Below are positions 18,555 through 19,578 of a stretch of 64,000 nt of DNA, piece by piece; the stretch's first letter is position 1, and each line of letters begins with the position of its first letter. The stretch is taken from positions 288,815 through 352,814 of the forward strand of contig CAWBVU010000005.1 of assembly GCA_963792405.1 (NCBI GenBank), written 5' to 3'. This DNA comes from an uncultured Acidimicrobiia bacterium. Its GTDB lineage: Bacteria > Actinomycetota > Acidimicrobiia > Spongiisociales > UBA5794. A model generated the notes under the pieces. That model was not told the DNA's origin and ran no database searches. It worked only from the letters and a program-made list of their open reading frames with translations. The position numbers and the translations under genes were made by a program.

Positions 18555-18812
18555 TCAGGAGCCCTGCCCGGTCGCCGTGGGGATGATCTCGTCGAGCGAC
18601 GCGATCACCTCCTCGATGGTGGCATGACGCCCGAGTTCCTTCTTCGAGAAGACGAGCTGGTCGTCCACCATCACCTCGAACACGCCACCACGCGATGGGA
18701 TCACCGTGATGTCGTCGATGTAGTGCTCGTATTTGCCGAGGATCGCCTGCACCATGCTCACGGCACGGTCGGTATAGCCTCAAGCGGCGCAGTACTCGAG
18801 TGACAGGTTCAT
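18555..18812 (-). CDS. Rdx (SelW/SelT/SelH-like) selenoprotein with CxxU motif, 85 aa
   Basis: ATG 18812 gives [21 protein letters not shown]...IPSRGGVFEVMVDDQLVFSKKELGRH; TGA at 18780-18782 occupies the second redox position. Confidence 0.92.
18751..18769 (-). promoter_or_regulatory. putative bacterial SECIS hairpin
   Basis: ACCGUGC-CGUGA-GCAUGGU (7-bp stem with one G-U pair, G-containing loop) starting 10 nt after the UGA. Confidence 0.7.
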
Positions 18813-19578
18813 GCGCCGCATCCTACCGACCATCCTCGTCGTAGCCGTCGGCTTGGCGGGATGCGCATCGACACCTCCGAGTGCCCTCGACGTGCTTCCC
18901 GACGATGTGCGCATGCTCGCCCTCGGCGACTCCTACGCGGCAGGTACGGCCATCGGGGTCGACGAGGCGTGGCCCGCGCAGCTGGCGGTGGCACTGACGG
19001 CGGAACGCAGGGTCGAGCGCTCCGTCGTTGCGGGCGATGGGTGGAACACCAAGCGGCTGAGTCGTGAGATCGCTCGTGCAGGGCTCGCTGCGCCATTCGA
19101 CCTCATCGTCCTCGAGATCGGGGCGAACGACGTGGTCCTCGACTTCGGCGAGGAGAACTTCAGGGAGGGGCTCGACCTTCTGGCCCTCGACATCGATGCC
19201 CTCGCCGCAGCCGATGCCGTCGTCGTGGTGCTGTCGATCCCCGATTTCCGCGTGTCGCCGTGGGGCAGGGAACGCCTCGACCGGGGCTACGACATCGAAG
19301 GGTTCAACGCGATCCTGTCGTCGTTCGCCTCCGGCATCGGTGCGTCGTACGTGGACATCACCGCTGCGTGCGCAGAGGCCCTGGACGATCCCTCGCTGAT
19401 CGCCCCCGACGAGCTCCACTTCGCCCCAGCCATGCATGCGACGTGGGTCGAGCGAGTGCTGGACGCCTCCGCTCCCTCAGCGGACGGATCAGTCGAGCAC
19501 CGCTCCCGACTCGGCGGAGCCGACGAGCTTCGCGTACTTGCCGAGGGCACCGGTCGGGTACCTGGCAGGGATCGGTGA
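18811..19578 (+). CDS. SGNH/GDSL hydrolase family lipoprotein
   Basis: Lipobox [24 protein letters not shown]. Confidence 0.88.

Follow-up and report, generated by a model that had tools for sequence, protein, structure and literature searches.

An in-frame UGA in an Acidimicrobiia genome most probably specifies the selenocysteine of an 85-residue SelW-like (Rdx) protein

Here we describe a small gene, on the minus strand of a 64,000-nucleotide (nt) stretch of Acidimicrobiia DNA, that almost certainly encodes an 85-residue SelW-like (Rdx) selenoprotein at positions 18812-18555, with the UGA at codon 11 read as selenocysteine (Sec). The whole stretch, hereafter the window, corresponds to G000:C5:288815-352814 of a genome of 2.89 Mb in 6 contigs that is 96% complete.

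The full gene (18555..18812, minus strand) comprises 85 codons and a stop when translated with TGA as Sec (U). It opens with an ATG at 18812-18810, the position of which is kept across relatives (the aligned codon is ATG, with GTG in two, and lies one codon further upstream in one relative), and it closes with a TGA stop at 18557-18555. The TGC codon of Cys8 (18789..18791) opens a CxxU motif that is completed by the in-frame TGA of codon 11 (18780..18782), giving C8-A-A-U11; both Cys8 and position 11 are invariant in the protein alignment (A2). The program-made list of open reading frames (ORFs) splits this gene in two, namely a 44-amino-acid (aa) ORF ending at the internal TGA and a 68-aa ORF starting from GTG 18761. 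Database homologues are 62-69 aa long, all begin after the UGA, and span no more than 79% of the full read-through product (120 of 120 among the matches listed), and the Joint Genome Institute (JGI) labels these truncated homologues "selenoprotein W-related protein". The active site is missing from such gene calls because the internal UGA was taken as a stop. A first-pass annotation of this region had set the frame from ATG 18812 with a TGA at 18782-18780 in the CxxC/U position, had placed the start of the listed ORF at 18761, and had pointed to the Rdx motifs GGVFEV and VFSKK; its coordinates are all correct, the listed start is the GTG of the 68-aa ORF, and both motifs occur in the read-through protein.

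Family membership was evaluated with the read-through protein, which scores 67.5 bits on the Pfam family Rdx (PF10262; cut-off 22.6), over profile positions 2-72 of 74, and 60 bits on the NCBIfam model TIGR02174 (CXXU_selWTH; cut-off 34.2). Seven solved Rdx-family chains, which we take to share a thioredoxin-like fold, also match by sequence. The best solved cysteine-containing (Cys-form) matches, SAV_2001 (3dex_A, E 8.3e-9) and Atu0228 (2fa8_A, E 1.5e-8), align over residues 3-62 and 3-69, respectively. In both, the motif CTQC lies opposite the C-A-A-[TGA] of the window, with its first Cys on Cys8, and the TGA therefore occupies precisely the second of the two redox positions in the family motif. 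The proposal of an Rdx protein with a CxxU motif is thus upheld by two family models above their cut-offs and by a TGA standing opposite the second Cys of CxxC. Unlike the window protein, the Cys forms carry Cys rather than Sec, and they have RA[AG]W in place of the RAV of the Sec forms.

Conservation of the UGA was assessed by a six-frame search with the read-through protein over 41 related genomes. A match was obtained in 33 of these, all 33 matches carry the in-frame TGA, and the pattern [Y/F]-C-x-x-TGA stands at one aligned codon in every one of the 33 excised loci, at identities from 83% down to 41%; an alignment of homologues, in which the first-pass annotation had looked to find either Cys or TGA at codon 11, thus yields TGA throughout. 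A wider sample of the class gave 87 matches in 86 of 201 genomes, 85 of them with TGA. Among 301 genomes sampled across the phylum, 67 gave 71 matches, comprising 56 with TGA, 14 free of stops and one with TAG alone; the stop-free matches are Cys forms, found mostly in genomes of 8-10 Mb. One of the 33 loci (L046, from G027) comes from a genome that is unpublished, as are nine of the genomes counted for the phylum; the conclusions are unchanged without them. Per-position variation over codons 2-10, before the TGA, is highest at third positions (0.475), intermediate at first (0.314) and lowest at second (0.203), and the same order is seen in the 20 codons after it (0.373, 0.288 and 0.244, respectively). 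This ranking on both sides of the TGA is that expected of a continuous frame under purifying selection.

The codon itself was verified in independently assembled contigs. Positions 18780-18782, which had been singled out for a check against TGC or TGT, read TGA with no difference in the contigs of four runs, three of them DNA runs from three studies (X1, X2 and X3) and the fourth a metatranscriptome library (X7). One X2 contig covers 18200-19043, and with it the entire gene, while the X7 contigs span 18392-18657 and 18716-19007. The nearest difference in any contig is an A>G at 18783 in a single X1 contig, which is synonymous (GCT to GCC) and also occurs in relatives. These contigs show presence; those of the RNA library carry no strand, ends or expression level, and may be DNA.

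Shortly after the UGA lies a putative selenocysteine insertion sequence (SECIS) hairpin (18751..18769, minus strand), with a 5' arm at 18769-18763, the loop CGUGA at 18762-18758 and a 3' arm at 18757-18751. It consists of seven pairs, one of them G-U, and begins 10 nt past the UGA. RNAalifold recovers the identical helix from the ungapped alignment of 33 sequences (A1), in which 97.6% of cells are paired, compared with 17-45% after displacement of the 3' arm by 1-3 columns. Changes on both sides occur in three of the seven pairs (the outer A-U to G-C, a single C-G to U-A, and U-A to C-G in three genomes), and the covariation score was reached by none of 500 shuffles. The U-A to C-G change costs a Met to Ala replacement, which suggests selection on pairing beyond a by-product of protein conservation. 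Loop positions 2 and 3 (G and U) are invariant in A1.

Presence of the hairpin follows the form of the codon. Seventy-three loci were examined, 65 of which could be parsed by pattern; those left unparsed were one Sec form (L051), in which the hairpin is visible, and seven Cys-form or divergent loci. A hairpin of at least 6 bp, located 6-16 nt past the UGA, is present in 57 of 57 parsed Sec forms, whereas the longest hairpin after the corresponding codon is 0-5 bp in all eight parsed Cys forms. It is because the hairpin is conserved and covarying in relatives, and absent from Cys-form homologues, that we place it above chance. The version found in the window's clade starts at +10/11 and has the loop CGUGA. 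In Actinomarina-type genomes the stem, at +11, is 6 bp long and encloses the loop AGUUA. Elsewhere in the phylum, in other classes, it stands at +14 to +16 and surrounds GUC, or GGUCU as a 5-nt loop. At least three lineage-specific SECIS versions (including those of L095-L112 and L090-L094) can be distinguished, differing in sequence and spacing and all keeping the loop G-U.

The fdhF element of Escherichia coli carries a bulged U, and the window hairpin, which has none, differs from it in this respect. The bacterial SECIS (bSECIS) model implemented in bSECISearch specifies a loop of 3-9 nt, a stem of 4-16 bp, a G within the first two positions of the loop with G or U next to it on the 3' side, a distance of 16-37 nt between UGA and loop, and a minimum free energy of at most -7.5 kcal/mol (PMC13188914). 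Comparison of these published constraints with the values measured here places the window hairpin within all of them (loop 5 nt, stem 7 bp, G then U, 17 nt from UGA to loop, -9.8 kcal/mol), with its spacing at the short end and the optional loop closing pair N1-N2 unformed. The 7-bp hairpin with a G-containing loop 10 nt after the UGA had been correctly described in the first-pass annotation.

The machinery required for Sec incorporation was identified by searching the genome. A tRNA-Sec gene at C5:207711-207801 scores 67.5 bits on RF01852 (cut-off 47) and is reported by ARAGORN as tRNA-SeC with anticodon tca. The selA gene (C6:1889161-1890471) scores 382.8 bits, selB, directly after it, 282.7 bits (305.5 with a neighbouring same-frame C-terminal piece), and selD (C5:228397-229320) 385.2 bits. 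All four components therefore lie above curated cut-offs in one genome, which the first-pass annotation had surmised and the search now establishes. The accompanying remark that the trait is patchy in Actinomycetota needs qualifying: within the Acidimicrobiia it is common, with selA above cut-off in 142 of the 201 class genomes sampled. It was also found in 80 of the 85 genomes of that sample with a TGA form, and G159, the sole class genome with a Cys form alone, gave no selA match. The selD gene itself bears an in-frame TGA in its active-site stretch SHGAGUACK (G000:C5:228427-228429, about 60 kb before the window start), so that the genome has at least two Sec codons. Two candidate hairpins follow the selD UGA, both with GGUC at or around the loop; either may be the SECIS, and they yield no within-genome consensus.

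The position of the start codon is further marked by a putative promoter. A -10 promoter-like hexamer, TAGGAT (TANNNT; 18820..18825, minus strand), lies 7 nt upstream of the ATG. Actinobacterial promoters lack a -35 consensus. All 20 loci compared have a TANNNT hexamer whose first base is at -14 to -12 relative to the ATG, and their 100-nt upstream regions together contain just two others. In the aligned upstream stretches, the purine-rich words found within approximately 15 nt of the start codon belong to this box. An AGGA 8 nt upstream of the ATG was considered as a Shine-Dalgarno sequence and ruled out, given that it lies inside the TANNNT box, which in relatives reads, among other forms, TAGCAT or TACCAT. 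A scan of 18250-18950 for E. coli-type promoters and terminators found nothing, E. coli models having no bearing on actinobacterial promoters. In Mycobacterium tuberculosis, 73% of primary transcription starts have a TANNNT centred 7-12 bp upstream of them, and many mRNAs are leaderless (PMC3898074). With a conserved TANNNT at the right distance, a transcript start at or next to the AUG is the best reading, and the mRNA is probably leaderless, in agreement with the leaderless ATG assumed in the first-pass annotation.

If the UGA is decoded as proposed, SelB with Sec-tRNA(Sec) would bind the hairpin 10 nt past the UGA, the G-U of the apical loop being the likely contact, and would deliver Sec to the ribosome paused at the UGA. 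In the resulting protein, Cys8 and Sec11 would make up a CxxU redox centre where the first helix of a thioredoxin-like fold begins. Given such a centre, the protein may function as a thiol/selenol oxidoreductase that cycles via a selenenylsulfide.

Several observations weigh against this interpretation. Sec insertion is deduced from sequence comparison, and we infer likewise the leaderless start, the contact between SelB and the loop, and the redox function. The score on the Campylobacter-type NCBIfam equivalog NF041051 (SelTWH_Campy), 72.5 bits, is under its cut-off of 88. Taken by itself, the hairpin is at chance level (-9.9 kcal/mol, z -0.86, equalled by 35 of 200 shuffles), and a 71-nt fold (z = -0.17) prefers another structure, it being important to note that the window sequence is G+C-rich and that single-sequence folds cannot tell the hairpin from shuffles. 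The hairpin lies inside the codons for DRAVSM, so part of its conservation is amino-acid-driven, and the invariant loop G-U forms the first two bases of the Val codon. Scanned against Rfam with an E limit of 10, positions 18500-18900 gave no SECIS family, only three unrelated matches at chance level. Rfam models, as reported in a recent preprint, represent bacterial SECIS elements poorly (bioRxiv 10.64898/2026.04.03.716425).

Five genomes with a TGA form add to these points. A repeated search for selA in four Actinomarina-type genomes (G091, G121, G183 and G201) did not find it; all four have a tRNA-Sec at 72-75 bits, and G121 is a single 1.0-Mb contig. In a fifth genome, G144 (95% complete, 90 contigs), neither selA nor tRNA-Sec was found above cut-off. 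Incomplete assembly may account for the absences in these five, given that in Actinomarina selA is placed by the same preprint at the boundary of a hypervariable region (bioRxiv 10.64898/2026.04.03.716425).

The SelW-like selenoprotein was weighed against four other accounts of the internal TGA. The choice of gene callers would be correct if the TGA were a true stop, closing a 10-residue peptide or no product, and the protein, of 66-68 aa and lacking CxxU, were initiated from GTG 18761 or ATG 18755. The short database homologues described above and the ORF list both agree with such a start. Against it, the 10 codons before the TGA are conserved as protein, with changes falling mostly at third positions, and the Pfam alignment begins at profile position 2, so that the first strand and the CxxC/U motif are part of the domain. 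Furthermore, GTG 18761 sits inside the hairpin loop and ATG 18755 inside its 3' arm, and it is ATG 18812, not either of these, that the conserved -10 box precedes. We therefore regard the short product as very improbable. A decaying pseudogene, in which the Cys codon of a CxxC Rdx gene has mutated to TGA, is less probable still. While the conversion of TGC or TGT to TGA takes a single-base change, and G144 has a TGA form without selA or tRNA-Sec above cut-off, decay is difficult to reconcile with a TGA retained at one codon in all 33 relatives (to 41% identity) and in 85 of 87 class matches. Nor were further stops or frameshifts seen, purifying selection is evident on both sides of the TGA, and the genome holds the full Sec machinery.

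The remaining two accounts have, in our judgement, next to no probability, and we rank neither above the other. Nothing was found in favour of a sequencing or assembly error, with TGC or TGT as the true codon; it would have to have been repeated in the contigs of four runs from four studies, which show no difference at 18780-18782, and in independent genomes with an identical TGA. A genome-wide alteration of the genetic code, in which TGA would specify Trp or Gly, is favoured by the in-frame TGA itself and by nothing more, but the gene's own terminal stop is a TGA, and relatives stop at TAA, TAG or TGA in the matching place. In addition, the in-frame TGA lies opposite the Cys of Cys forms, and a dedicated tRNA-Sec is present together with selA, selB and selD. 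Decoding of codon 11 as Sec, in a full-length Rdx protein, hence remains the reading that we hold with high confidence.

The gene can be placed within a family for which published comparisons are available. SelW-like proteins are among 25 bacterial selenoprotein families tabulated by Zhang et al. 2006 (PMC1794560) and are described there as having few or no Cys homologues in Sec-using organisms. The window protein resembles the SelW-like proteins presented there in being small (approximately 80 residues), with an N-terminal CxxU and a coding-region hairpin directly after the UGA, and in occurring solely with selA, selB, selC and selD. The scarcity of Cys homologues is likewise matched by the 85 TGA forms among 87 matches in the Acidimicrobiia. 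In the paper's tables, the sole SelW-like case under 'Actinobacteria' is Symbiobacterium thermophilum (PMC1794560). Compared with these previously tabulated forms, the window's clade is distinguished by its affiliation with the Acidimicrobiia, a hairpin sequence of its own, a leaderless-type promoter and a downstream gene with four Cys. Among the papers returned by our literature search for this lineage, none was found to describe the Acidimicrobiia gene as SelW-like.

Members of Candidatus Actinomarina belong to the same class as the window organism, and for them the preprint reports universal selA, selC and selD, a Sec-form selD and approximately five selenoproteins per genome (bioRxiv 10.64898/2026.04.03.716425). 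According to the preprint, the main text of which prints no sequence for it, the most abundant Actinomarina selenoprotein family consists of a 78-aa protein left uncharacterized. In five of five Actinomarina-type genomes excised here, the homologue of the window protein is exactly 78 aa long and carries CxxU. On this basis the uncharacterized 78-aa family is probably SelW-like/Rdx, judging by length and prevalence only. In contrast to Actinomarina, the window organism belongs to another order and has a genome of approximately 2.9 Mb, and its protein, at 85 aa, shares 38-48% identity with those of Actinomarina. A contig labelled 'Methanobacteriota archaeon' (L131, NYXO01000052.1) also carries a 78-aa Rdx gene, with 72% identity to the Actinomarina protein, and is probably a mis-binned piece of an Actinomarina genome. 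Sec-form-like homologues further occur under Gemmatimonadales, Neomarinimicrobiota, Vulcanimicrobiota and other labels.

In most relatives the surroundings of the Rdx gene follow one usual order on a single strand, from ilvD through the Rdx gene to a small ORF. In the window this small conserved gene, orf64, occupies 18307..18498 on the minus strand, with GTG 18498 as its most likely start and a product of approximately 63 aa, and it lies 56 nt downstream of the Rdx gene. The product contains four invariant Cys arranged as CxxC, 16 residues and CxxC (alignment A3). No Pfam or NCBIfam model matched it above cut-off, a weak sub-threshold NCBIfam hit being the sole return, and its five database relatives are either named "hypothetical protein" or nameless. 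In 15 of 19 related loci it follows the Rdx gene on one strand, and so do all nine strong matches to orf64 in the class sample, which lie 40-635 nt from the Rdx match. Among 113 Sec-form loci with enough downstream sequence, orf64 is present in 21, all of them in the window's own clade, and in none of the Actinomarina or other-phyla loci.

An E. coli-type scan found no terminator-like site between the Rdx gene and orf64, and the transcript may run on into orf64. We have considered whether the two genes form a lineage-specific redox pair on a leaderless two-gene mRNA, with the orf64 product as a direct substrate or partner of the CxxU centre. We regard this as unlikely; if true, it would offer the first concrete handle on the targets of bacterial SelW-like proteins.

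On the opposite side, a GDSL/SGNH lipase-like gene (18811-19578, plus strand; PF13472) diverges from the Rdx gene, and the start codons of the two overlap in the palindrome CATG. Its predicted N-terminus resembles a lipoprotein signal ending in LAGC, and the final 90 nt of the gene run into the 3' end of ilvD (19489-21363, minus strand). The window and L023 are alone in having a lipase-like gene placed between ilvD and the Rdx gene. Converging on the Rdx-orf64 pair from the other direction is a gene for a molybdenum hydroxylase of the xanthine dehydrogenase/aldehyde oxidase type (15409-17973, plus strand), which looks ordinary; its product of 854 aa has fused N-terminal 2Fe-2S domains.

Knowledge of both the family (recognized by about 2005) and the recoding mechanism goes back some 20 years, and the gene is not new biology. 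Beyond the routine are the SECIS versions, the conserved leaderless-type promoter and the downstream four-Cys gene, the last being the only lead to something new. The three lineage-specific, covarying SECIS versions are usable for training bacterial SECIS models. The main value of the finding lies in annotation, in that this gene is systematically reported without its active site in the window's lineage. Given that the called proteins start after the UGA, protein surveys miss the selenoprotein of 85 of the 201 Acidimicrobiia genomes sampled. For Actinomarina, it supplies a probable family name, SelW-like/Rdx, for the most abundant uncharacterized selenoprotein family.

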